This document shows, one piece after another, positions 5,489 through 57,167 of a stretch of DNA of 64,000 nucleotides. The DNA lies in IMG/VR virus record IMGVR_UViG_3300037454_000146, positions 1 to 64,000 of that record. One strand, given 5' to 3'. Source of the DNA: a virus. The notes under the pieces were generated by a model. It worked only from the letters and a program-made list of their open reading frames with translations, had not been told where the DNA came from and did no database searches. Each line of letters opens with the position of its first letter. Within the stretch, counting starts at the first letter, position 1. A program made the position numbers and the translations under genes.

Positions 5489-5917
5489 ATGAATAAAGTG
5501 ATTTTAGTAGGTAGATTGACAGCCGATCCTGAACTTAGACAGATACCGAGTGGCGTTGCTTCTTGCAGATTTACCGTTGCGATAGATAGAAAGTTTGCAG
5601 ACAAGAACACAGGAGAGAAGCAGAGCGACTTCATCAATTGCGTAGCATGGAGACAGACGGCAGAGTTTGTTTCTCGCTATTTCAATAAGGGTAAGATGAT
5701 TGCTCTTGAGGGAAGTCTCAGAACTGGTAAGTATCAGGATAAGAACCATGGAGATGTAACTCATTACACTACAGAGGTTTATGTAGATAACGTAGAGTTT
5801 GTCGGCGGCAAGGGTGACGGCGGACAGCAGACTCAGGCTGCACCCACACAGGCTGAGTCACCGACAACATCCGCCGAGCCTGTAGATAGTGCAAGTTCTG
5901 AAGATTGCCCCTTCTAA
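5489..5917 (+). CDS. ssb: single-stranded DNA-binding protein
   Basis: MNKVILVGRLTADPELRQ OB-fold N-terminus, Gly/Gln-rich linker, acidic tail ending in PF. Confidence 0.9.
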   Translation: MNKVILVGRLTADPELRQIPSGVASCRFTVAIDRKFADKNTGEKQSDFINCVAWRQTAEFVSRYFNKGKMIALEGSLRTGKYQDKNHGDVTHYTTEVYVDNVEFVGGKGDGGQQTQAAPTQAESPTTSAEPVDSASSEDCPF

Positions 5918-6013
5918 TCAATAAGCGACACGACACGGTAAACGAGCCAATCTCGCATACAATTAATAAATATGTATGTTGGGGTTGGCTCTATTTTTAT
6001 TTTAGGAGGCAGC

Positions 6014-6736
6014 ATGGATTTAACTAAAAAGAAGTGGAGTTTTAGTTCCTTAAAGTTGTATGAAACCTGCAAGTATGCGTTCTATCTTAAATATATTGAG
6101 GGTGTAGAAGAAGAACCTAACGCCTTCAGTTCCTTCGGTAAACACGTTCACAGCATTCTTGAACGTTATTTTAAGGGTGAACTTTATGCTTTTGAACTGG
6201 CAGATGTTTTTGAGCAAGAATACGAAACCGCCGTTCCGCAAAGGTTTCCATTTTGGAATATGTTCAACGCTTTCTATTCTAAGACACTGGCTTATCTTCA
6301 GAATTTTGATGGTGTAGATGGTGAAGTTCTTGGAGTGGAAGAAGAACTTGACAGTACGATAGGCGATTACGAGTTTATTGGGTTTGCAGATTTGATAATG
6401 AAAGACGAGAACGGTATATTTGTGGTGGATCATAAGAGCCACGGAGCGTGGAAGTCGAAGAAAGAACGTGCTGAGTATATGCGGCAACTTTACTTGTACG
6501 CACATTGCATCAAAGAAAAATACGGTGAGTTTCCCTATAAACTGGTATTCAATAAGTTTAGGTCTGATGAGCCTTTAGACGAAGAACCGTTCAGAGAGGG
6601 CGACTACGCTGCGACAATAGATTGGTTTAAGTCGGCAGTTAAAACCATACTGGCAACGGACGAGTGGGAGTGCGAAGTGAATAACTTCTACTGCACGAAT
6701 CTTTGCAAGATGGGATGTGTTTATGGAGGCGAATAA
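6014..6736 (+). CDS. PD-(D/E)XK nuclease, Cas4/RecB-like with Cys cluster
   Basis: ADL...VVDHK (D..DxK), QLYLYAH (QxxxY), one N-terminal Cys (YETCKY) plus C-terminal CTNLCKMGC. ATG 6014 follows AGGAGG. Confidence 0.7.
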   Translation: MDLTKKKWSFSSLKLYETCKYAFYLKYIEGVEEEPNAFSSFGKHVHSILERYFKGELYAFELADVFEQEYETAVPQRFPFWNMFNAFYSKTLAYLQNFDGVDGEVLGVEEELDSTIGDYEFIGFADLIMKDENGIFVVDHKSHGAWKSKKERAEYMRQLYLYAHCIKEKYGEFPYKLVFNKFRSDEPLDEEPFREGDYAATIDWFKSAVKTILATDEWECEVNNFYCTNLCKMGCVYGGE

Positions 6737-30436: not shown

Positions 30437-30628
30437 ATGACAAAATCATTAACTGTTAAAGAAGTGAGCAAAATACTTTGTATAGGATTGAATCAGGCTT
30501 ATGCATTGATGAAAAGCAAAGGTTTTCCGTCTTATCGTATCAACAATAAATATTTCGTCACCGAAGAAAACTTATGTAAATGGCGCGACAATATTAAAGG
30601 TCGCCAAATTCTTCTGAAGGCTGATTGA
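30437..30628 (+). CDS. xis: excisionase-type helix-turn-helix DNA-binding protein
   Basis: LTVKEVSKILCIGLNQAYALMKSKGFPSYRINNKYFV matches the excisionase-family HTH pattern. Adjacent and convergent to int. Confidence 0.6.
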   Translation: MTKSLTVKEVSKILCIGLNQAYALMKSKGFPSYRINNKYFVTEENLCKWRDNIKGRQILLKAD

Positions 30629-31769
30629 GCAATGATATTGCTTTAACCTTCTGTTCTTCGATTATATGAATATAGATATTGTAGGTAATGCTTACATCGC
30701 TATGCCCCAAGATTTCCGATACAGTCTTGGGGTCAACGCCACGCTTAAAGAGCATACTGGCGAACGTATGCCTTAACGAATGGACTCCCGCTGGTTTTAT
30801 GCCAGCGGTTTCTGTTATTTTACGAAACGCACGGTCGAGATTGCGAGGGGATATGAATTTTCCATTCTTGGTTGTGGCGACGTATACTTCGCTATGACGA
30901 TGCTCCCAAAGATATTTGAGGGCGGCTACCGCGTTGTCTGCCAGAGGAATTAGCCTATTGCCCGACTTTGTTTTGGGAGACTGCTCAATCAATTTATACA
31001 CATTTTTTGAATTTTTATCGCGATTGCGGACTTGTTTAAGATTTCCAGATACTCTTAGTGTGCCAGCGTCGAAGTTGATGTTTTCCCATTTAAGGGCGAG
31101 TAATTCACCCACTCTCATGCCCGTATAAAGCAATAAGATGATATACCAACCATTGCTATATTTATATTCGCCATTCTTGTACTTAAATAGCGCGTGCTTT
31201 TTTATCAATTCAATTTCTTCTGCGTTATAAAAAACAATATCTGACAATTCCTTCTTGATTTGTTTGGGGAGAGATATACGGACTGCGGGATTCTTTTTAA
31301 TTTCACCGCGCTCATAAGCCAGTGTGAGGCAAGAGTCTATCGCGTTGTACGCTTTCTTAATTGTGGAATACGCATAGCCCTTATTGGTTAATGTGTTGAC
31401 TAATTCCTGTATGTCGCTCGGAGATAAACTGTGAATCTGAATATATCCAATAAAGGGGAATATCTGATACTTACAAGTTGCCTCAAGCCTGTCGTAAGAA
31501 GAAGGTTTAAGCTCCGTGCGCTTAATATCTTCGAGCCAACGGGTCATATAGGATTCAACCGTAGTCTTTTGGACTTCCTCATATTCGTGACGAATAAGCT
31601 CTTTTTGAAATTCTTTTAACTTTGTTTTGACTTCTCGTTCCGTCTTACCGTAAATAGCTTTGACCTTACGCTTGCCTTGAGCATTATAGCCCATAGTGAC
31701 ACGCGCTGTCCATTTACCGTCCTTGCGTTGCGAGATACTTCCCATGCCTTTTTCGCGACGTTCTGCCAT
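30594..31769 (-). CDS. int: tyrosine integrase
   Basis: N-terminal SAM-like domain (GSISQRKDGKWTARV), catalytic region TGMRVGELLAL ... HSLRHTFASML ... LGHSDVSITYNIYIH. ATG 31769 follows GGAGGTG. Confidence 0.9.
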   Translation of the reverse strand: MAERREKGMGSISQRKDGKWTARVTMGYNAQGKRKVKAIYGKTEREVKTKLKEFQKELIRHEYEEVQKTTVESYMTRWLEDIKRTELKPSSYDRLEATCKYQIFPFIGYIQIHSLSPSDIQELVNTLTNKGYAYSTIKKAYNAIDSCLTLAYERGEIKKNPAVRISLPKQIKKELSDIVFYNAEEIELIKKHALFKYKNGEYKYSNGWYIILLLYTGMRVGELLALKWENINFDAGTLRVSGNLKQVRNRDKNSKNVYKLIEQSPKTKSGNRLIPLADNAVAALKYLWEHRHSEVYVATTKNGKFISPRNLDRAFRKITETAGIKPAGVHSLRHTFASMLFKRGVDPKTVSEILGHSDVSITYNIYIHIIEEQKVKAISLLNQPSEEFGDL

Positions 31770-31817
31770 ACTAACACCTCCTTGATTATAGTATAGCATA
31801 CGGAGGCTAAAAAGTCA

Positions 31818-33727: not shown

Positions 33728-33900
33728 CGAGAATTGAAACCTTCACAGGTATTTCTTACTGCTTCAACGTATATGCTTTTGTGGTTATAAAACACACTAC
33801 TCACAAGTTCTTGTACACTCCACAGTCGTAAATTCCCGAAATAGCCTTCGGTACATACTTATATTTTGCTTTCATTATGCAATTGTATAAGTTATTGCAT
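33728..33900 (-). ncRNA. expected position of the TnpB omega/reRNA scaffold (3' end of tnpB to the right end)
   Basis: By analogy with characterised TnpB loci. Local hairpins seen: CCGAA-GGCTAT-TTCGG and ACAAG-AA-CTTGT. Not verified. Confidence 0.3.
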
Positions 33901-35035
33901 CTCTAAGATTCAGACTGGCATTAAAATCCCTATCTGCTACATACCCACATTCACAGTGATAAATTCGGTCTGATAGTTGCAGCTTTTTCTTGATATGACC
34001 ACAACAATGACACGTTTTAGATGAGGGATACCATCTATCTACAATTCTCAATTCAATACCATTTTCAAAGCATTTAAATGCTAATTTAGTTCTAAACTGA
34101 TAAAACTTTTGAGATGCTACGGCTTTTGCAATATGTTTGTTTTTCATCATCCCTCTTACATTCAAATCTTCAATAGCAATATAAGATGGTTTGGTTTTCA
34201 CTATCTCGGCTATTACTTTATTAATGTAATCGGTGCGGATGTTATTTAACTTATTATAAAGCCTTTGTACTTTTAGCTTTTGTTTTTGTATATTTTTTTG
34301 AGTAGCCCCTCCTTTCTTATTTTTATCATATTTACGAGAAAGACACCGTTGTTCTCTACGCAGACGTCTTTCAATCTTTTTGATTTTTTCTGACTTGTTA
34401 ATATTTGCGTATAATTGACCATTTGACAGAATCGCGAAATCCTTTAAACCCAGATCAATTCCAACACCTTCGTTGTTGCAAACTGTAGGTTCTATAGAAG
34501 GAATATCTACGAGGACAGACACATAATATCTACCAGCTTCAACAGATATAGAGCCGCTTTTAATAATTAGTCCGCTTCGAGTTGTTGGAATATATCCTTT
34601 CTCTTTAACGCGCACCCATCCTAATGTTGGAATATTGATTCTATGTCTTTCACATCTACAATCTTTTGAATTATTCTTCACAAAATACATTGTGACATTA
34701 GATCTCCCTTTCTTCTTAAAACGAGGATAACCACTTCGATTTTTAAAAAACCTCATAAAAGCTGCATACCCATTTTCAATAGATTTTTTAACTGCTTTTG
34801 AATATACTTCTTTAATCCATTTTTTATCAGAATTGTTTGGGATATACTCATTGTTCAACCATACACTAAATTCCTTGCCCGTAACAAAGTCTTTGTTTTT
34901 AAGATATAGTTCTTTATTGTAAGCAAGATAAAAATTATAAATAAATCTACAGGTATTAATCGTTTTGTCTATTTTATTCTTTTGCTCTAATGTAGGATTG
35001 ATTTCCGTCTTAAAACTCTTAAATATTTTCATCAT
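33875..35035 (-). CDS. tnpB: TnpB (OrfB) RNA-guided endonuclease-family transposase accessory protein
   Basis: N-terminal FKTEINPTLEQKNKIDKTINTCRFIYN, RuvC-like GIDLGLKDFA, AIEDLNV, and Zn ribbon SSKTCHCCGH...YHCECGYVADRDFNASLNL. Confidence 0.85.
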   Translation of the reverse strand: MMKIFKSFKTEINPTLEQKNKIDKTINTCRFIYNFYLAYNKELYLKNKDFVTGKEFSVWLNNEYIPNNSDKKWIKEVYSKAVKKSIENGYAAFMRFFKNRSGYPRFKKKGRSNVTMYFVKNNSKDCRCERHRINIPTLGWVRVKEKGYIPTTRSGLIIKSGSISVEAGRYYVSVLVDIPSIEPTVCNNEGVGIDLGLKDFAILSNGQLYANINKSEKIKKIERRLRREQRCLSRKYDKNKKGGATQKNIQKQKLKVQRLYNKLNNIRTDYINKVIAEIVKTKPSYIAIEDLNVRGMMKNKHIAKAVASQKFYQFRTKLAFKCFENGIELRIVDRWYPSSKTCHCCGHIKKKLQLSDRIYHCECGYVADRDFNASLNLRDAITYTIA

Positions 35036-46762: not shown

Positions 46763-49700
46763 TTATCTGCGCGGCTTGAATACCTGACTTTCGGTCAGAA
46801 CCGTCTGCATATAGGATTCCATTTGTCTCGCGAATTGCTCCGCGTTCTGTACGTTGGGGAGATTGATTACTGTGCCGTTAAATGTGACCGCGTTTGCCGT
46901 GTCGGATTTCTTGCCCAAATTCTGTGCGATTCGCATATTGCCCGTAATAGCAGAAGGTGTTAGCGCGGGAGAGTTGTGTAGCGCATTATAGAGCTTTGCC
47001 GCATCGGTCGAATTGAGCACGAGCTCGGGGCGTTGCTTTGTTCCGTGGAGCATTGCAAGTCCCGTATAAGTATTCACTCCGCCGTCTGCGTATGCGCCTA
47101 TTTTTCGTAAATATGCGTCCCAAGCCGAATTAACATCTTGATTATACTTAGACAAATCTTCTTTAACGATAGCTCTCCTAATACCATATTCGTCTACCTC
47201 TAACCTATCAAGTCTCTTTTCAATATCGTCTATGCGGTTGTCATAAGAAGAATAGTCCATACCCGCAACAGACTCATTGAGTTCATCTTGGGCTTGAGTT
47301 AATTTGCTTATGATAGTCGAATACTTTTTATAAAACGAATCAAGATTTCGAGCCATATCGCCCTCGTCACTACCCATGCTTAATGAAATATTGTAGGCTT
47401 CTTTATAAAAATCTTGAACCGAGTCTTTGGCTTCTTTCGCAACATTTTGCACCTTAGATTTGTATTCTTGCCATTTCTTAATTTCTTTATCAACGGCTGC
47501 AATCTGTTTGTTTGAGGCTTCGATACTCTTATTTACAGCCACCATTTCTACATTAGAAACACGACTGAGCTCGTCGGCATACTTATCATATTCCGTTTCG
47601 TAATCATTAAGAATATCTAAGTCCTGCTCGGCAATCTTATCACGCCAATCAGCACCAAGTATCTGCTCGGCAAGTCGCTCATCTTCTGCTTTTTGCCTTT
47701 TTTGAGTAACACCTTCCCATTGTTTCAGATATTCCTCTAAGACCTTAATATCTTGATTAGCTTGCGCCTTATCTACTTCCCGTTGAGCCTTATCAATATC
47801 TGACTTCTTAGCCTCATACTGCCAACCGCCCGCTTCTGTATAGGTACGAACTTTCTTGTTTTTAGCATTTTCGAGATTTGCAAGTTTCTCCGCGAGGTCA
47901 AGAGCTTCTTCACGCTCCTCGTTCTGCTCCTTAATTGCTTCAATCTGTTCCTTGATAGCGTTTTGAACGGTATTTGCAACCTTTTCGTAATTCTCAGTAA
48001 TTTCTTCGAGAGCGTCTTTCTGTTCCTGCAAGACCGTGAGTTGCTCCTCCATTGCTTCTTTAGAGGCTTCAATAGCAGATTTTTCAGCTTCATAACCCTC
48101 TATAACGGAATCAATTTTGTATTCCTGTGCCTTTAAAAGAGTGTCCGCTTCTTCATTGAGTTCTTTAGTAAGATTGTTAAGCGCTTGCTGACGGTCTACT
48201 GTGTCACCAAGACTTCCGTTGTAATATTGCAACACAACATTATTGCGATCCCAATCCTCTCCAATCTCAACAACTTTTTGTTCTGCCGTCTCTAACTGAT
48301 TCTGCAATTCAACGTATTGATAATAGTTAGGATTGTGAGAGTTTTTACGCATTTCAGACCACGTGTTCATTTCAGCCCGAATTGAAGCTACTTCTTCTTG
48401 CGCGGCTTTTTTAGCATTAAGCAACTCAATTTGTTTGAGCTCTATAGATTGAATTTGTTTTTGAATATAAGCATCTTTCAGGTCAATAAGTTGTTGCTCT
48501 GTGACTTTAAATTGTCCACTAATACTATCAAAACTTGCAGGACTTAAATATTTAGTGCCTAATTCGTCATCCAACTTATACAAGTCCATAAATGCATCTC
48601 TGTCAATACCGTTGCCATTAGCAAGCGTCTGAAGTGCTGACTTCATAGCGTCGATATTCTTTAACGTCGTTTTCTTTAATTCGTCATAGCTTTCATACCA
48701 AGCCTCAGACATACTTTCGATTGCTGTAATTGCACCAGAAGCTCCTGTTTCAAAGGAAGAAAACAATGAATCTACGTCTTGTTGCAAAGAAGGATAGTCT
48801 GCCCCAATTTTATTTAGCTCTTGCCTAATCTCATCAAGGCTTTGCGCCGCTTGTCTCTTTTTTATAGTGGTATTATCACCCGCAATAACGTGATTTAATT
48901 CTTTGGCTTTATCAATCAAAGAATTGTAATTATCTAATACGTCTTGTGGAACTTCAAACGAATTATAATATTTGGTTTGACGCTCCATTTGGTCGGCATC
49001 GGCTTTATCAACTTCATATTTTGCTCTTGCCGCTACGTATTGCGCCATTAAGCCCTTATAAATATCTTCGTCATATCCGTCGATTTCTTTATAAGTGTCG
49101 GCTATTTTTTTCCAGCCCTCAACTTGCTCCTCTAAAGTACCCATAACTGCAATGTCAGCTTCTTTGCCCCACATATCAGTAGCTATATGGTCAAAAGCAA
49201 CCCCTGTGTCATGGAACAGCTTTAACATATTAGACAAGTCGGTTGTTGTATCGGCTTTTATCTTTGCACGATAAAATTGAGTTGAATCAGAATCGGCAAT
49301 TCTTGCATTTTTGTCAGTACCCTCAAGCGATTCAACGGCTTGTTTGTACCTCTTTTGATTTTCGGTATCGAAAATGTAATCTTCAACCTTTTCTTTTTTT
49401 AACTGTCTTATCTTTTCAATTTCTTCCGATAATTTGCCATTAACCAAATCAATACCCTCGGCTTCTTCGCCATATTTGGATATTAATTCGCCTTGCATTG
49501 AAGATAATTCCTTTTGGATTCCAACTAAATCATCTGTAGAAGTATAAAGTTGAAGGTATCTATCCATTATTGAATCTAACGAATTGATTTCCTCGCCCAT
49601 AGCCTCTATAGATTGATGACCAGAATCGCGCAACTCTTTTGCGGCTTCAGCAGCTTTTTCTTCTGCGTGATACCACTCGTCAATTTGTTTAACAACTAAT

Positions 49701-49996
49701 GATAAAGCATAACTTAACCCAAATGATATAGCCGCATTAAGAGCTGCGGTTGCAACTTGTAATGCAATAGTCTTAGCACGAGCAACCACGAGGGATTTGA
49801 CATACCCGCCCATTGTTGCTTCTGCACCATTAAGCCCTGATAGATAATTTTTTAGTCCGACATTCGAGCCGCTAATCTCATCATCAAAAGCCTCTTGGAC
49901 ATATTTAGCTTTATTAAGAGAATAGTTATAATCGTCTAAACTCGTTGTTATCTTCTTTATATCATTGCCAAATTTACTAATGTCAGAACCGAATAT
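46763..49996 (-). CDS. tail tape measure protein, exon 2 (1077 codons + stop)
   Basis: Long coiled-coil protein with hydrophobic segment AALNAAISFGLSYALSLVV. No RBS before the tracked ATG 49999. Joined in frame to exon 1 by the proposed splice. Confidence 0.7.
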   Translation of the reverse strand: MFGSDISKFGNDIKKITTSLDDYNYSLNKAKYVQEAFDDEISGSNVGLKNYLSGLNGAEATMGGYVKSLVVARAKTIALQVATAALNAAISFGLSYALSLVVKQIDEWYHAEEKAAEAAKELRDSGHQSIEAMGEEINSLDSIMDRYLQLYTSTDDLVGIQKELSSMQGELISKYGEEAEGIDLVNGKLSEEIEKIRQLKKEKVEDYIFDTENQKRYKQAVESLEGTDKNARIADSDSTQFYRAKIKADTTTDLSNMLKLFHDTGVAFDHIATDMWGKEADIAVMGTLEEQVEGWKKIADTYKEIDGYDEDIYKGLMAQYVAARAKYEVDKADADQMERQTKYYNSFEVPQDVLDNYNSLIDKAKELNHVIAGDNTTIKKRQAAQSLDEIRQELNKIGADYPSLQQDVDSLFSSFETGASGAITAIESMSEAWYESYDELKKTTLKNIDAMKSALQTLANGNGIDRDAFMDLYKLDDELGTKYLSPASFDSISGQFKVTEQQLIDLKDAYIQKQIQSIELKQIELLNAKKAAQEEVASIRAEMNTWSEMRKNSHNPNYYQYVELQNQLETAEQKVVEIGEDWDRNNVVLQYYNGSLGDTVDRQQALNNLTKELNEEADTLLKAQEYKIDSVIEGYEAEKSAIEASKEAMEEQLTVLQEQKDALEEITENYEKVANTVQNAIKEQIEAIKEQNEEREEALDLAEKLANLENAKNKKVRTYTEAGGWQYEAKKSDIDKAQREVDKAQANQDIKVLEEYLKQWEGVTQKRQKAEDERLAEQILGADWRDKIAEQDLDILNDYETEYDKYADELSRVSNVEMVAVNKSIEASNKQIAAVDKEIKKWQEYKSKVQNVAKEAKDSVQDFYKEAYNISLSMGSDEGDMARNLDSFYKKYSTIISKLTQAQDELNESVAGMDYSSYDNRIDDIEKRLDRLEVDEYGIRRAIVKEDLSKYNQDVNSAWDAYLRKIGAYADGGVNTYTGLAMLHGTKQRPELVLNSTDAAKLYNALHNSPALTPSAITGNMRIAQNLGKKSDTANAVTFNGTVINLPNVQNAEQFARQMESYMQTVLTESQVFKPRR

Positions 49997-50033
49997 CATA
50001 TATTAAAAATCGTTTTTTTATTTGATTTTTAAC

Positions 50034-50062
50034 TTGACAAATTAGAAAATATTTGTTATAAT
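50034..50062 (+). promoter_or_regulatory. sigma-A type promoter P4 (TTGACA-17-TGtTATAAT)
   Basis: Same family as P1-P3. Lies inside the intron, antisense to it. Confidence 0.7.
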
Positions 50063-50087
50063 ATAATAGAAGAAAGGGGTTGATGTT

Positions 50088-50603
50088 ATGAAAAATAATC
50101 TTATCAACGAAATTAAAAAATATTCAATCGCAGATTTAAAGATTATATTAGACACTCAACAAGATTTATATACCATTGACGAGATGAACATTATTAGAGA
50201 TTATTATGAAAAGTGTAAAAATGAATACATATCTAAGCACACACCAAAGCTAATCCCTTGCCCTAAATGTGACGCGCAAAATGATTTTAATTCTACAACT
50301 TGCACATATTGTGGTCAACCTATAAACAACAAACCTTATTTAGATAGAATATGCAACGAAATGCTTGGGATTATAACCGCAGAAGATGTGAAAGACGACA
50401 ACGATGATTATAATGGCAAATCCCCCTCGTTCTTATTCCAGTATATAATCAGCTTCATAATACCTCTTATTGGTTTAATTGTAGGTGGCGTGTTTATTGC
50501 AAGCGATGACGAAGATAAGAACGCGTCGGGCAAGATTTGTATTGCGATTAGCATTATATCTATCATTGTAAGCACCACTCTATATGTTTTAATATCAAAA
50601 TAA
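50088..50603 (+). CDS. zinc-ribbon + two-TM membrane protein (moron)
   Basis: CPKCDAQNDF..CTYCGQP, then FLFQYIISFIIPLIGLIVGGVFIA and ICIAISIISIIVSTTLYVLI. Has its own promoter. Confidence 0.6.
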   Translation: MKNNLINEIKKYSIADLKIILDTQQDLYTIDEMNIIRDYYEKCKNEYISKHTPKLIPCPKCDAQNDFNSTTCTYCGQPINNKPYLDRICNEMLGIITAEDVKDDNDDYNGKSPSFLFQYIISFIIPLIGLIVGGVFIASDDEDKNASGKICIAISIISIIVSTTLYVLISK

Positions 50604-50607
50604 CCTC

Positions 50608-50636
50608 TTGACAAAATCTCTTGCTTGTGCTATAAT
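50608..50636 (+). promoter_or_regulatory. sigma-A type promoter P5 (TTGACA-17-TGcTATAAT)
   Basis: Same family. Drives the repeat RNA + toxin unit. Confidence 0.7.
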
Positions 50637-50640
50637 AACC

Positions 50641-50755
50641 TTGCGGAGCAATCCGCACCGTGTCGTGTCGCTCCCGATTAGCGTCTAATAAATCATCGGA
50701 TATGAATGTTTGTCGCTCTCTGATATGCGACTAATAAATCGTCAGACTCAAATCT
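50641..50755 (+). ncRNA. putative type III antitoxin RNA: 5' GNRA hairpin + 2 (plus a partial) x 45-nt repeats
   Basis: Units 50666-50710 and 50711-50755 both start TGTCGCTC and share CTAATAAATC. The internal stem covaries (CCGAT/ATCGG vs TCTGA/TCAGA). Confidence 0.6.
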
Positions 50756-50781
50756 AAAGCCTTGCCTAATCGCAGGGCTTT
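50756..50781 (+). terminator. attenuator-type hairpin between repeats and toxin gene
   Basis: AAGCCTTGC / GCAGGGCTT stem (one G.U) with a 6-nt CTAATC loop. Weak T-tract, as expected for a leaky terminator. Confidence 0.5.
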
Positions 50782-50798
50782 ACTATTAGGAGTATTTT

Positions 50799-51251
50799 AT
50801 GATTACAGGTCACTTCTATTTTCTCAAGCCAGAATATACACAACAATTTGCAAATCCAAAGTTTATGAATAACAATGAACATAACCGCCCGTATTTCTGT
50901 GCCTTTACAGAGGATAGCCACATCTTTTGGCTTGTGCCGATTTCCTCTAAAGTGGATAAATTTGAACGTATTTACAACAATAAAGTTGGTCGTTATGGTA
51001 AGTGTGACACCATTGATTTCTGCCACATCCTCGGCAGAAAGAAAGCGGTTTTAATCCAGAATATGTGTCCTGTAACACAAGAGTTTATTTTGAATGAGTA
51101 TAACGATCCGCATGGTAAGCCAGTACAACTTTGTGAGAAAGTGCGCAAGCGCATTACTCATAAAGCAAAGAAAGTCCTCGTTCTTCACCGCAAAGGCGTT
51201 GACCTGTTGTTTGGGGACGTTCTAAAAATTAAAAAAGAATTATCAAAATAG
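50799..51251 (+). CDS. type III toxin, ToxN/AbiQ-family endoribonuclease (putative)
   Basis: FYFLKPEYTQQF...NRPYFCAF...IFWLVPISSKVDKF...AVLIQNMCPV parallels the ToxN/AbiQ features FY...Y...L..FD, RPY, YFAPLSSPK, N.NNMIPV. 150 aa. Preceded by repeats and a hairpin. Confidence 0.65.
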   Translation: MITGHFYFLKPEYTQQFANPKFMNNNEHNRPYFCAFTEDSHIFWLVPISSKVDKFERIYNNKVGRYGKCDTIDFCHILGRKKAVLIQNMCPVTQEFILNEYNDPHGKPVQLCEKVRKRITHKAKKVLVLHRKGVDLLFGDVLKIKKELSK

Positions 51252-51308
51252 TTGAATATCGTACCCCTAATTCCATTCACTGAGACTGAATTATGAGGTG
51301 ATGAAAAA

Positions 51309-51413
51309 ATGAGTTTTGTTTATAAACCCGTACACGTTAGAGCATATTATCGTATACGTTACGGCGCACTGGAATATGTGCGTGAACACTATCGCTCATA
51401 TCCCATAAGATAA
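51309..51413 (+). CDS. possible 34-aa basic peptide
   Basis: MSFVYKPVHVRAYYRIRYGALEYVREHYRSYPIR after GAGGTGA. Bracketed by a 17-bp long-range inverted repeat. Confidence 0.3.
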   Translation: MSFVYKPVHVRAYYRIRYGALEYVREHYRSYPIR

Positions 51414-51848
51414 TGGGAGTTCACCAGTAATTTGGTCAGGATTCAAACTCTTTAATCCAGTGGACGGAACTAAGGGTACGATTTTTCTGCTTTCTCCACG
51501 CTTGCAGTAGCGCAAAACAATAGGGGAGAATCCTCTTTGAAACCAACGCATTTCTGCGCCTATGGACTATATCTTTGTGGTGTTACGCCACAGCTTCTTT
51601 TAGTCTCTGAACCTTCCCTTGCGGGCTTGGCTGCTGATTAACCGTTAAACAACCTTTAGCTTTTGAGCATGGGTTATCCGCATAATTTTTTCTGCTTTCG
51701 CAACATTCACGCTTGCAACCAGTGGTTGCTACGTTGTAGTCTACGCGGCTTTGGGTACTTCCAGCAATTAAAAAGCTCATTTGTGAGGGACGTATCACCC
51801 CGCAACAATTTCGTAACAATGCGAGGTTAGGCATATTCGGTTAGGTTT

Positions 51849-54362
51849 ACCTATCCCTTTGAAGCTGCCGACAGCGGCGAGCCCTGTAAGTAAAGTCGGG
51901 AGTGTCCCGAACTTGTCGATGATTTTTGTCAGTATCTCTAAAAACTCTTTGGCGGTGTCTACCACGCCCTTAATAAAGTCGCTACCTACGACCGTCTGAG
52001 CGAGGTCTTGGTATGCCGCCTTTAAGCTGTCAATAGAATACTGAATCGACTTCGCGTATTCTTCTTGCTCGCGACGTGCAGAGCCCGCAGAACCCTCGGC
52101 GGTCTTGTAAACCTTTTCAAGCAACTCGCCGTTTTCGAGGATTGCCGCACCTATATTCGACTGACGTTTGCCAAATAGCTGCTCAAGAACTGAGCTTCGC
52201 GAGAGGTCATCAAGTTGACCCCACACCTTAGAGATTTCGAGAAGAATCTGATATGTTGATTTATATGTTGTGTCGTCAAGCTGAATGTCTACGCCTGTAA
52301 GCGCAAGCATCTGCTGTCTGAGCTTCGATATATTTTCAGCCGCACCCTCTGCATCCTCACCAATCTGTTCAAGCTCTGTCTTGGTTGAACGGAGACGAAG
52401 TGATACGGTTTTGATGCCCTGTCCGACAGTGGTCGGGTCTTGGGCGACAGTGTTTGCCGTGGTGATAAGCGCTATACTTTCGCTCAGAGTGTTATTTCCA
52501 GCCGCTAACGCGGAAGCAGAGCGTTTGAGAGCCTCACCTATACCACCAGAAGATATTGCGAAGTTATTGCCGACTTCGTTAAATTTGTCTACAATTTCTA
52601 TCGAGTTCTGCGCCTCTATATTAAAGGCTTTCATCGTAGACACTAAATCTTCTGCCGCTTGTGTTTCAGTTATGCCGTCGCCGACATTCTGATAAAGTAT
52701 CGCAACCTTACCGAGCTCCTCCGCGTCGGGCAAAGATTCACCCAGTCGTGCAAAGGTGCTTGTGGCGTTGATTACGTCGGTTATGCTCGCACCGAGCTCT
52801 TTGGCGGTATTGCCCGCAGACTTCTGAAATTTTCTGAAATCTTCTTCGGTCGCTTCAGTAACCTTGCGAAGTTCAACCATTGCCGTGTCAAGCGCCGTTA
52901 CCTCGTTTACCATATCTCTAATCTGCCTCTTGACAAAATTAAAGACCATATTCGCGGTAATGTAGCTCGACATTAGTTTGAATGAATTTAAGAATTTACC
53001 CCAAGCACTTTCACCTTTGAGTCCTGCGGCTTCAGCCTCTTTACCAAAGATGCGGAACTCCTCGCCAAGATGTTTAACTTCACTCGCGCTCAAATCCGCG
53101 CCTTTCGCCATACGAGATGTCAAGTCCGCCCACTTGGAGGCGAAAGTTGTGCCGTCAGACATTTGCTTGGTAGAATCTATGGCTCTCTTATTAGCAGAAG
53201 CATACGCTTGCATATCTGCTGAGAGTTTCTTAATCTTATTAGATAAAGAAGTTTCTCGACTAAGAGCCTTTTCTTCCTTTTGAGCCGCCTTTAAACCATT
53301 GGTAATATCTTGAATGGCTTGGCTTACTTCTCCATATTTCTTACTCCATTCTAAGCCACGACCAGATTCACTTTCAATCCGCTGCAACTCTACGAGATTT
53401 TTACTTGCATTTGCAAGATTGTCACCCAAAGACGATTTCGCGGACTCATCTGATAGAGCATCTATATCTTTTCTTAACGCATTAAGCGTATTATCAAAAT
53501 TTTTAGCTTTGTTAATTGCGTTATCAAATATATTAAAGGAACTTCCAGTCGATTTTAGCGACGTTCCGATATTAGCCGCAGCCGTCTTGAGATTATCAAG
53601 TGCCTTCTGTGCGGATTCCACAGAGCCAACGCCAGACTCTAAATCAATAATGGCGTTACGAGCTGTGGTCAGCGGCTCAATTAAACCACTTTCGATTGAT
53701 TTGTGGCTTGCCTCGAAATTAGCAAGCTCTTTACTTAGTCTTGCTAAATCTTGCTGTATTTTGCCAACGCCCTTGTCAGAATAAGAACCACCAATATACT
53801 CAAACTTTTGACCAGTAGAATCAAGCAAGAAATTAAGTTCTCTAACCTCGCCAGAAGCAGCCTGTATTCTCGCAATTATCTTATTTATACTATCCGCCGA
53901 CTCTTGATCGTTATATTTGCCTGTAACGGTAACAGTACCCAATGATGATAGGCGACTTTGTATTGTAGCCATTGTACGCTCGGCGTTGATTATCCCGTCT
54001 GCATTTGTCGCAACCTTAAACGGCTCAACAAACCTACTATCTAAATCCGCAAGCGTTTTCTTTAAAGTGAGAACTTTGTTTGTTACAGTTTCGACACTCT
54101 TAGCAACATTCTCGATGTTTTGCGCCGATTGTCCAGTACCAGCCTGTATTTCTATTTTGGGAATATCTATTTTCAGTTTTTTAGATATTTCGCTAACTTG
54201 ATTTTGCAGAGTAGCCAAACTGTTTGTGTCGAGACTACAAGCTATTGATAATGCTTTGTTGGCATCCAATCGCTTTTTAACTTCTTCTAAATCTTTTTCA
54301 ATTGTACTGACGGTCTTGGGTATGTCCAAACTCGCCACTATTTCAATTCTGTTATCGTCCAT
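51849..54362 (-). CDS. tail tape measure protein, exon 1 (838 codons)
   Basis: TP901-type TMP core FAISSGGIGEALKRSASALAAGNNTLSESIALITTANTVAQDPTTVGQGIKTVSLRLR. The tracked ORF runs 18 codons into the intron before a stop. Confidence 0.75.
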
Positions 54363-55490: not shown

Positions 55491-56033
55491 TTAGATTTGA
55501 GTCTCAACTGCATATCGCCCGATAGCGATAGCGTCAGATACGTCGTCTACTTGTATATCAAGATTATAATAATCGTTTACTTTCTGCCTTATATCTTCTT
55601 TTCGTTCTGGTCGCTTTACACCTCTGCCGTATTTGCCCCACGCCGTTATCCACTTTGATTCCTCTATAATGGTATACTTAACATTGTGTTTGTGGGCAAT
55701 GTGTGCTATGAAGCCTTGCAGTCTTGCAAGCGACCTAAACCCTTTCGGATTTGCATTTTCAAATATTTCCTCAAACCATATCTCGTCAGGCTTGAACTTC
55801 TCAATAAGCTTTTCGAGTTGGTCTGTTATCGCCGTTATTCGGAGTAGAGTAGTGCCATAATCCGCTTCGGGCATAATAATACTGATAAGGTGCGGTTCTT
55901 CTTCTACTCGCAACTCATCAGCTCGTTTACTCATTTTTGGTTTTATTAGGCAATAATCTTTTAGCTTGCCATTAACAAAAAAGCCAGCCCCCGTTGCGGA
56001 AGTTGACTGGTCTATGCTCAAAACTCGTTTCAT
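55491..56033 (-). CDS. RuvC-like Holliday junction resolvase
   Basis: ATG 56033 after AGGAGG. LSIDQSTSATG (Asp 1), IWFEEIF (Glu), DVSDAIAIG (Asp), as in lactococcal-phage RuvC-type resolvases. Confidence 0.65.
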   Translation of the reverse strand: MKRVLSIDQSTSATGAGFFVNGKLKDYCLIKPKMSKRADELRVEEEPHLISIIMPEADYGTTLLRITAITDQLEKLIEKFKPDEIWFEEIFENANPKGFRSLARLQGFIAHIAHKHNVKYTIIEESKWITAWGKYGRGVKRPERKEDIRQKVNDYYNLDIQVDDVSDAIAIGRYAVETQI

Positions 56034-56075
56034 ATTTCCTCCTATAAAAAAGCACACCCGAAGGTGCGCTGTAAA

Positions 56076-57167
56076 TTATTCTGCGTATTTCCAGATGCAA
56101 TTGGCATATATTTCTTTCTTATTCTGACAACATAGTGACACATAATAAGAATTATATCCATTTTGTTTTATTTCTGAGAGCGATGCATATTGATTTAATA
56201 AAACATTATTCATATCATATTGCTCATATTTAATAGCGTTCTGTTGCGATTGCAATTCTTGATAATATAAACGGTCATTCTCCAAATTTTCGGTCGATTC
56301 ATTTTCGTATCTCCACACATAACCAAAAGCAGTATCAACCATTCTCCTACAACAAGACGAAATCAGCGATCTGTTTGTATAACCAGTTTTATCTTCAATT
56401 TCTCTAATTGAATTAAAACTACAAATTAGATTCATACCCATATCGTATTGATTAATTTTTAATCTTTGAGCCTTTTCATTAGCATAATCCAAGCGTTTTT
56501 GTAACAACTCATCAGAATAATCTTCCTCTTTAATCCATATAAATCCTTTATAAGAACGCTTAATACCACTTGCTACCGCTGACACACAGCTATGAATATA
56601 GCCATCTTGTTCAGCCTCTGTCAATGAATTGTATTTATGAAGTATTTCTCCACTATCTTTATCTATTTTATATATAGGACGAATACAACGTTCTTTATTT
56701 CTTTCAGCAATTCCCGTATTATCTTTTGTATAATCAGTTCTTTTCTTTCGAGTGCCAGAAGCCCAAGATTCTTTTTGAGCTTTTCTCATATTATTACAAG
56801 CATCAGCAGGAATTGGAACTCCCAAATGAGCCATTGATTGCCTAAGTCGTGTTTCCTCAGTAATTTCTTTATTTAAATTTCCGCCTTTTTCAATATTAAA
56901 TCCTCTTTTAAGATTTGTAGAATCGTAAAAAGCAATTAATTCAATTTCTTTTGTTTCAGCTTCTTCTTTTGATAAATTATCATACAATATCTCCGAAACT
57001 ATACAATCCCATCCGTTTTTTAATATGAATCTGAAGAAGTGAATATTGTCTTTATACCCTCGACCTCTATCAAACCTTCTTTTCGGGTTTTTCTGACAAG
57101 TGACTCCGATATATACTCGACCATCTGGGACAGTGTGTTTATACACTTTATATTTCTTTTCTTCCAT
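56076..57167 (-). CDS. GIY-YIG homing endonuclease with NUMOD/IENR1-type DNA-binding repeats
   Basis: KVYKHTVPDGRVYIGVT...R...GY...EAETKEIELI...N...GG (GIY-YIG core), ETRLRQSMAHLG (NUMOD3-like), and three YxSxxEaxxxGY...V......K..Y....W repeats. Confidence 0.8.
   Translation of the reverse strand: MEEKKYKVYKHTVPDGRVYIGVTCQKNPKRRFDRGRGYKDNIHFFRFILKNGWDCIVSEILYDNLSKEEAETKEIELIAFYDSTNLKRGFNIEKGGNLNKEITEETRLRQSMAHLGVPIPADACNNMRKAQKESWASGTRKKRTDYTKDNTGIAERNKERCIRPIYKIDKDSGEILHKYNSLTEAEQDGYIHSCVSAVASGIKRSYKGFIWIKEEDYSDELLQKRLDYANEKAQRLKINQYDMGMNLICSFNSIREIEDKTGYTNRSLISSCCRRMVDTAFGYVWRYENESTENLENDRLYYQELQSQQNAIKYEQYDMNNVLLNQYASLSEIKQNGYNSYYVSLCCQNKKEIYANCIWKYAE

Follow-up and report, generated by a model that had tools for sequence, protein, structure and literature searches.

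Group I introns in phage tape-measure genes have been described from prophages of the Bacillus cereus group, where three sites are occupied, different introns can occupy one site, and some introns are without endonuclease genes (PMC2504315). Phage group I introns are usually viewed as selfish RNA with a homing endonuclease at most, to which IStrons added transposon cargo. A 2014 review of bacterial group I introns contained no antisense genes and no cargo beyond endonucleases and insertion sequence (IS) elements, and our full-text literature search for group I introns together with toxin-antitoxin systems, anti-phage defence or opposite-strand genes found no such cargo described. CptIN toxin-antitoxin loci were defined in a survey that reported repeats of 40-48 nt in 1.9-3.4 copies and a toxin of about 149 aa (PMC3401426), and CptI in its processed form folds as an H-type pseudoknot of 45 nt (PMC4627078). 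Here we analyzed a 64,000-nt stretch of viral DNA (the window; positions 1 to 64,000 of IMG/VR record IMGVR_UViG_3300037454_000146) and conclude with good confidence that in this temperate phage a single tape-measure gene is interrupted by an 1852-nt self-splicing group I intron whose cargo, a CptIN locus and a zinc-ribbon gene, would be expressed in the lysogen. Such introns have precedents in tape-measure genes; what appears new is a toxin-antitoxin cargo in one, apparently exchangeable and predicted to be transcribed independently.

The open reading frame (ORF) list of the window contained two minus-strand ORFs of 855 aa (51795..54362) and 1078 aa (46763..49999) that the initial annotation had taken for two pieces of one tape-measure gene. 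Profile searches identified a TP901-type tape-measure core in the first (TIGR01760, E 5.7e-33; PF10145, E 2.5e-20) and weak coiled-coil-type matches only in the second. The ATG of the second ORF at 49999 is directly preceded by TAA TAT and no Shine-Dalgarno sequence, bearing out the earlier remark that it has an in-frame stop nearby and no ribosome-binding site. Joining 51849 to 49996 kept the frame, and our recomputation arrived at the same 838 + 1077 = 1915 aa as that annotation, with both exons free of frameshifts. Exon 1 (51849..54362, minus strand, 838 codons) ends in AAAGGGATAGGT and exon 2 (46763..49996, minus strand, 1077 codons plus stop) begins with ATATTCGGTT, a start that agrees with the IFG found at this place in uninterrupted alleles. 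The predicted ligated-exon RNA reads GGGATAGGT up to 51849 and continues with ATATTCGGT from 49996, and the 1915-aa protein would contain the junction-spanning peptide SFKGIGIFGSDISK. An integrase is encoded at 30594-31799.

Relatives of the gene located the junction independently. A 326-aa query across the predicted junction matched 41 metagenomic homologues in a search of a protein collection, and 26 of the 41 aligned exactly to residue 838 before continuing into recurrent tails of 12-35 residues (KLTEYAYLRSVA and KLKPNMPIYAPLQLCA, each then ending at a stop codon, and RPNRICLTSHCY), which are translated intron 5' ends. Contigs of the relatives (numbered with the prefix L, all uncultured) were collected from the protein matches and from IMG/VR, genomes and metagenomes, and they showed two states at the site: uninterrupted, or broken directly after the same glycine codon. 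With a slash marking the site, the predicted window junction is KGIG/IFGSD. The uninterrupted alleles read KGVG/IFGDLD in L006 and L029 (DNA GGCGTAGGT followed by ATATTTGGTGAT), KGHG/IFPTEG in L008, L025 and L032, and KGTG/LFGNLN in L028, and in L026, L044, L045 and L046 the glycine is followed by LFG, LFK or FLT. Excision of the intron thus restores the uninterrupted gene (KGIG/IFGSD vs KGVG/IFGDLD). The initial annotation had named two independently translated genes in related phages as evidence that would count against an intron; the uninterrupted relatives have one continuous gene.

The phage lineage is distant from cultured phages. A megablast of the region against GenBank phages returned no matches, tblastn of the tape-measure protein against the same phages returned only relatives of 30-41% identity, and the nearest cultured tape-measure protein is 41% identical. 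Exact-sequence look-ups returned a single contig, 100% identical to the window, which adds no variation and is possibly not independent. Two related, uninterrupted tape-measure loci in one Eubacteriales metagenome-assembled genome suggest a host within the Eubacteriales.

The intron (49997..51848, minus strand, 1852 nt) begins with A51848 and ends with a terminal G (omega-G) at 49997. Rfam model RF00028, the covariance check proposed in the initial annotation, matched 51544-51830 on the minus strand with 60.7 bits against a gathering score of 50 (E 6.3e-13). The match spanned model positions 1-253 of 253 and was the sole group I match in the window at that threshold. The core (51544..51830, minus strand) contains P2 to P9, including P3, P4, an extended P5, P6, P7 (GACUA/UAGUC), P8 and a GAAA-capped P9; the previously assigned positions of P3, P8 and P7' were right, and the P7 string was one base off. 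The internal guide sequence (51825..51842, minus strand) is composed of the P10 guide AACCGAAUAU (51833-51842) followed by the P1 guide GCCUAACC (51825-51832).

The guides define both splice sites. Intron nt 7-24 read AACCGAATAT-GCCTAACC in DNA, exon 1 ends in GGATAGGT, and the 10 nt past G49997 are the ATATTCGGTT with which exon 2 opens. The last 8 nt of exon 1 (GGAUAGGU as RNA) pair with the P1 guide at 7/8 positions with a U.G pair at the cleavage site, and the P10 guide is complementary at 10/10 positions to the first 10 nt after G49997, so that the previously described guide layout held in every pair. The P10 10-mer and its complement are confined to those two places in the window (shuffled sequences gave a mean of 0.16 matches), and the guide/exon 2 pair was the sole 10-nt perfect inverted repeat that a repeat search reported in the region. 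P1, P10 and the omega-G coincide exactly with the ORF boundaries. The last 90 intron nt (49997-50087) have a G+C content of 18.7% vs 40-44% in the exons. The promoter and leader of the zinc-ribbon gene, which run antisense, nearly fill this segment and leave little room for conserved 3'-terminal intron structure besides the terminal G.

Nine complete introns could be delimited at the site, namely those of the window, L001, L003, L007, L031, L050, L051, L052 and L053. They are 959-2508 nt long, all place the terminal G before (A/G)TATT(C/T)(G/A)(G/A), and P10 consists of 8-10 contiguous pairs. The P10 guide and exon 2 change together: CCGAAUAU with AUAUUCGG in the window, UUGAAUAU with AUAUUCAA in L001, and CCAAAUAU with AUAUUUGG in L003 and L031. 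The P1 guide likewise tracks its exon in other lineages (UGUCGGU/GCCGACA, UGUUGGU/GCCAAC, CGUGGGU/GCUCACG). Two classes of ribozyme core were present at the site, one comprising the window and the truncated L004 and L005, the other the remaining eight introns. A single column-wise structure on a MAFFT alignment of both classes was abandoned since P2 and P3 of the window are offset by 1-2 columns from those of the other class. In IMG/VR, exact-pattern scans directed at the core class of the window gave no further members, so covariation could be measured in the sister class only.

Within the eight sister-class introns we defined 83 base pairs in P1, P10 and P2-P9. Standard pairs filled 96.7% of cells and 31/83 pairs were changed on both sides. 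Sliding the 3' partner by 1-3 columns left 30-44% of cells paired and 3-6 pairs changed on both sides, and 500 within-column shuffles averaged 12.9 such pairs and reached 19 at most. In P10, 4/9 pairs were changed on both sides among relatives, and P7 changed from GACUA/UAGUC to GAGUA/UACUC. The covariance model match, the junction of the uninterrupted alleles and the guide covariation in relatives all agree with the group I intron first proposed from the window alone, and at the sequence level there is independent support for each element, from the intron and its two splice sites to the ligated frame.

Two small hairpins (51483..51543, minus strand) lie directly 3' of P9. They are ~90% conserved in L003 and are also present in L001 and L007, though the core classes differ, and their stems covary (GCGCU/AGCGU vs GCCCG/CGGGU; AGAGAGG/CCUCUCU vs GCAGG/CCUGC vs AUGGG/CCUAU), with G.U pairs that are valid on the intron strand only. 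We tentatively assign them as peripheral helices of the P9.1/P9.2 type. The post-core segment 51482-51506 shares direct repeats with the core P5 extension at 51687-51717 (TTTTTCTGCTTTC, 89% over 18 nt; CACGCTTGCA, 10/10), which may be traces of old recombination between parts of the intron or of an old duplication. Scanning 49900-51560 against Rfam with permissive settings returned no matches, indicating that cptI has no Rfam family and that no second intron fragment lies there.

The plus-strand cargo cassette is the most interesting part of the locus. All substantial ORFs in the 1.5 kb from the core to the 3' splice site lie on the plus strand, an orientation that the initial annotation had stated rightly while leaving unrecognized that they are real genes, CptIN and a zinc-ribbon gene with promoters. 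The first promoter-like site (50034..50062, plus strand; TTGACA-N17-TATAAT, 12/12, with a TG-extended -10) is 37-65 nt from the 3' splice site and precedes the zinc-ribbon gene (50088..50603, plus strand). Its 171-aa product matched Zn_ribbon_3 with E 2e-5, below the Pfam cutoff, and was read as a membrane protein from its hydrophobic C-terminal segment; a 47% identical homologue is encoded inside the L003 intron. A second promoter-like site of the same consensus (50608..50636, plus strand; TTGACA-N17-TATAAT, 12/12, TG-extended -10) precedes cptI and cptN, in a layout common to 9/9 cptIN loci compared.

The cptI antitoxin RNA (50667..50756, plus strand) consists of two tandem 45-nt repeats, 50667-50711 and 50712 to about 50756, with a 5' hairpin between promoter and repeats. 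The repeats were missed by Tandem Repeats Finder and were found by a repeat search and direct inspection. Two interleaved stems, as in an H-type pseudoknot, can form in 18/18 repeats from 9 loci. Stem 2, in six different sequence pairs, is paired at 5/5 positions in 18/18 repeats; stem 1 is paired at 4-5/5 positions in 18/18 and covaries (GUCGC/GCGAC vs ACCGC/GCGGU). In overall layout the repeats fit the published fold. An 11-bp terminator-like hairpin (50755..50782, plus strand) between the repeats and cptN was conserved in 9/9 loci, with a U tract that is weak and was unlisted by a terminator scan, and is followed by an AGGAG ribosome-binding site before cptN. The cptN gene (50799..51251, plus strand) encodes a 150-aa type III toxin of the endoribonuclease family that matched NCBIfam NF047359 CptIN with 167.8 bits (cutoff 90; E 1.4e-49) and the solved Eubacterium rectale CptN, PDB 4RMO_A, with E 7e-21. 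No CptN homologue was detectable by tblastn against 50,697 GenBank phage records.

A 34-aa ORF with a GAGGTG ribosome-binding site (51309..51413, plus strand; phrog_21154 of unknown function, E 2.6e-10) is bracketed by a 28-nt inverted repeat (51255-51282 / 51458-51485, 82% complementary). The block of ~230 nt that holds it was present in L007 and L020 and absent from L001, L003 and L031, a patchiness that suggests a small insertion of its own within the cargo. Searches of the intron ORFs against Pfam, NCBIfam, PADLOC and PHROGs gave no match to a nuclease family (LAGLIDADG, GIY-YIG, HNH or His-Cys box), and we dropped a homing-endonuclease reading for that reason.

Comparison of related phages indicated that cargo modules swap independently of ribozyme core and exons. 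Between the window and L007 (identical to L019 and L030), a stretch of 952 nt was 95.8% identical, beginning at 51543, at the end of the Rfam core match. The L007 CptN was 99% identical to that of the window, exon 1 of L007 only 72%, and the L007 core belonged to the other class. Seven verified introns carry cptIN (window, L001, L003, L007, L031, L051 and L052). The L053 intron instead holds a GNAT acetyltransferase, a 50-aa upstream ORF and small ORFs, and that of L050 three small ORFs of no known function. L031 has a minimal intron of 959 nt in which cptIN directly follows the core and the cptI -35 element is 11 nt from the 3' splice site. Free-standing cptIN loci (61-81% protein identity) occur in four contigs with an intact tape-measure site 838, L020 (5861-6685), L021 (2374-3023) and L022/L023 (about 5868-6453), where they are antisense to and between two tail-cluster genes. 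From these distributions the cargo looks like an exchangeable module.

The same site is interrupted in more distant lineages, with tape-measure genes only 35-55% identical broken after the same glycine. The interruptions are 2994 nt in L014 and L016 and 3516 nt in L015 (7 pairs in P1 and 10 in P10 for all three), about 980 nt in L017 and L040 (P1, 7 pairs; P10, 7-8 pairs) and 5486 nt in L009 (P1, 3 pairs; P10, 10 pairs). All have a terminal G, and removal restores G/IFK in frame. In L017 and L040, inspection by eye found P5, P6, J6/7 (GGUUCAGAG), P7, P8 and P9 hairpins, in which the two sequences differ by compensatory changes. RF00028 detected no core in L014, L009 or L017, also when narrow regions were scanned; the L014-type and L009-type insertions are probably introns, judging from the signature of P1, P10 and terminal G. 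Cargo in these lineages included ToxN/AbiQ (Pfam 145 bits; PADLOC E 5.5e-21), MazF/PemK with an MqsA-like partner, NsnA/PD-T4-2-like GmrSD-N proteins (E 7e-39), DUF3800, a lipoprotein-like ORF and zinc-ribbon proteins. Same-site insertions across diverged phages thus range from 959 to about 5500 nt, all with P1 and P10 guides and a terminal G. On this basis we slightly favor the broader view that the intron at this tape-measure site is a general cargo carrier, a small island of defence and accessory genes within a self-splicing intron.

From the features above we infer the following course for splicing, cargo expression and cargo function. The first ~370 intron nt would fold as the ribozyme, with P1-P9 and the two small 3' hairpins. 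The last 8 nt of exon 1 would pair with GCCUAACC in P1, presenting the U.G pair for attack by free guanosine, and the terminal G at 49997, ~1.5 kb further on, would be chosen with the help of the 10-bp P10, in which AACCGAAUAU pairs with the opening 10 nt of exon 2. Self-splicing from the late tail transcript and exon ligation would yield the mRNA for the 1915-aa tape-measure protein, and on unspliced RNA ribosomes would stop 17 codons into the intron and leave the 855-aa product. The 3' three-quarters of the intron would serve as an opposite-strand cassette with two consensus host-type promoters, from which host RNA polymerase would transcribe the cargo in the lysogen, whether or not the late tail genes are transcribed. 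Processed CptI would keep CptN inactive, and upon failure of the CptI supply CptN could act as an addiction and/or exclusion function that benefits the prophage. The intron would render the insertion in an essential structural gene harmless, and the conserved exon flanks would allow intron and cargo to move between phages by recombination. A possible rationale for the opposite-strand orientation is that the tail pre-mRNA would then be free of the hairpins, ribosome-binding sites and CptN-cleavable repeats of the cassette; the ToxN gene of L009 is sense-oriented, which argues against opposite-strand cargo as a strict rule. More speculatively, the intron RNA of the late tail operon, which is complementary to both CptI repeats, might titrate the antitoxin and so tie toxin release to the lytic cycle.

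Several observations weigh against a split gene with a functional intron and an expressed cargo. P1 contains an A.A mismatch, 1.5 kb separate the core from the 3' splice site, and the promoters of the cassette drive transcription toward the tail operon; either the distance or the facing promoters could lower splicing efficiency. Folding energy of the 51483-51543 hairpins was without significance (z about 0). The covariation comes from the sister class, while the window's own class has only the truncated relatives L004 and L005, and RF00028 scored the sister class below threshold (24.6-44.4 bits), from which we take it that the model is not a sensitive detector here. The 171-aa zinc-ribbon protein had no PADLOC or PHROG match, and its other matches were uninformative. 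The case for splicing and cargo expression is built from sequence evidence. As to function, published cptIN loci have stabilized plasmids without protecting E. coli from the coliphages tested (PMC3401426, PMC4627078).

These points leave room for other explanations of the locus. Gene callers annotate two ORFs in every relative and exon 2 of the window happens to begin with ATG, as would be expected if the ORFs were separate, independently translated genes flanking a dead relic of an intron. We consider this very unlikely, since exon 2 has no ribosome-binding site, the uninterrupted alleles are one continuous ORF, and compensatory change in the core, P1 and P10 points to selection on RNA structure. 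Moreover, the intron ends in TGG in L001, which provides no start codon at the exon 2 junction and argues against independent translation of exon 2, and in TTG in L031, L050, L051 and L053. With the ends varying in this way the ATG appears incidental, its G being the conserved terminal G of the intron. The long span from core to 3' splice site and the converging transcription would also fit an intron that was once functional and has been disabled by its cargo, in a defective prophage. This too is improbable, if a little less so, given that at least nine diverged phages share the core-plus-cargo layout, that P10 and the terminal G are kept and covary across introns of 959-2508 nt, and that both exons are intact. 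The nrdD (sunY) intron of phage T4 also has an ORF 3' of its core and a distant 3' splice site.

An IStron, in which a group I intron is fused to an IS200/IS605 transposon, would have the same architecture of a 5' ribozyme with cargo in the 3' part (PMC3984707, PMC4227781), and a TnpB gene is present in L050, where it lies in a different interruption upstream in the tape-measure gene. The insertion site at residue 838 is fixed across relatives with a guide tailored to it, and searches of the window intron ORFs against Pfam, NCBIfam, PADLOC and PHROGs gave no TnpA/TnpB or transposase match; we dropped this reading, which we regard as the most improbable of those considered. A further alternative leaves the split gene as it is and concerns function only: CptIN could be a selfish addiction module that stabilizes the intron or the prophage, and not an anti-phage defence that benefits the host. 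The E. rectale system behaved in this way in the plasmid and coliphage experiments cited above, from which we rate defence and addiction roles for the window CptIN about equally likely, a defence role being unproven. The authors of PMC3401426 pointed out that coliphages may have no bearing on systems of Firmicutes, other cargo at the site matches defence models (the AbiQ/ToxN and NsnA/PD-T4-2 proteins above), and addiction and defence are not exclusive, so that a purely selfish module seems possible but somewhat short of an even prospect. For the structure of the locus we retain a single tape-measure gene interrupted by a self-splicing, cargo-bearing intron as the probable explanation.

Other possible mobile elements were noticed in these phages. 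One or two further tape-measure interruptions occur upstream in relatives, around residues 619-667 of the window protein (L001 5691-5985 and 7403-7834; L004 4090-4520; L050 1216-4256; L053 2856-4376; L054 1009-4405), and the window is without them. RF00028 gave 51, 42.3 and 33.8 bits in these interruptions, which contain ORFs of 415-506 aa (DUF4379 or NUMOD1-like), and that of L050, with its TnpB (OrfB_IS605) gene, is IStron-like. The tail cluster of the window itself contains an HNH homing-endonuclease-like ORF (56076-57167, minus strand; phrog_314, E 2.8e-21) and a RuvC-like resolvase ORF (55491-56057, minus strand; phrog_159, E 5.9e-18), at which no intron was detected. Relatives have GIY-YIG or I-HmuI-like ORFs at this place, and in L021 an RF00028 match of 59.6 bits lies beside genes of the tail-tube region. 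Farther away, a RAGATH-18 RNA (33756-33826, minus strand; 73.4 bits, cutoff 44.9) is directly downstream of a 386-aa ORF (33875-35035, minus strand) of the phage 'transposase' family phrog_506 (E 4.5e-111), and may be part of a phrog_506 mobile element.

The locus suggests a third role for group I introns in phages, as a harmless landing pad, inside a structural gene that is essential, for toxin-antitoxin or defence genes with transcription of their own. If this is true, introns that split tape-measure genes are a new place to seek phage-borne defence and exclusion systems, because in the output of gene callers such a locus appears as a split tail gene with "hypothetical" antisense ORFs. CptIN would also be placed in a definite setting, that of temperate phages from gut-type Firmicutes. 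The locus would further offer a simple experimental system for how far splicing tolerates 1-5 kb of convergently transcribed cargo and for how transcription of the intron bears on the antitoxin.

Introns of the T4 nrdD (sunY) type resemble that of the window in having the catalytic elements at the 5' end, then a long ORF-bearing stretch and a far 3' splice site. The T4 nrdD ORF is a sense-strand homing endonuclease gene, whereas the corresponding stretch in the window contains antisense, non-nuclease genes. With the CptIN systems of Coprococcus and Eubacterium rectale the window locus has in common the toxin family, about two upstream 45-nt pseudoknot repeats, an intervening hairpin and a toxin of ~150 aa (PMC3401426, PMC4627078, PDB 4RMO). 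All 33 of the 33 loci in the founding survey were chromosomal and none was reported within an intron, whereas that of the window is intron-borne. IStrons (CdISt1 and relatives; PMC3984707, PMC4227781, PMC10690162) share the 5' group I ribozyme, the foreign genes in the 3' part and splicing that makes an insertion harmless, but their cargo is an IS200/IS605 transposon (TnpA/TnpB) that carries the element to many sites, while the window cargo has no transposase, a fixed site and the opposite strand. The closest likeness in the interrupted gene is to the B. cereus group prophages (Tourasse and Kolsto 2008, PMC2504315), where tape-measure introns also occur at several sites per gene, with shared sites, a patchy distribution and some members without a homing endonuclease. 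Those introns contain a homing endonuclease gene, its remnant or nothing and belong to a different phage lineage, whereas the intron described here, from uncultured Eubacteriales-associated phages, carries an opposite-strand toxin-antitoxin locus and a predicted membrane protein gene with promoters of their own.

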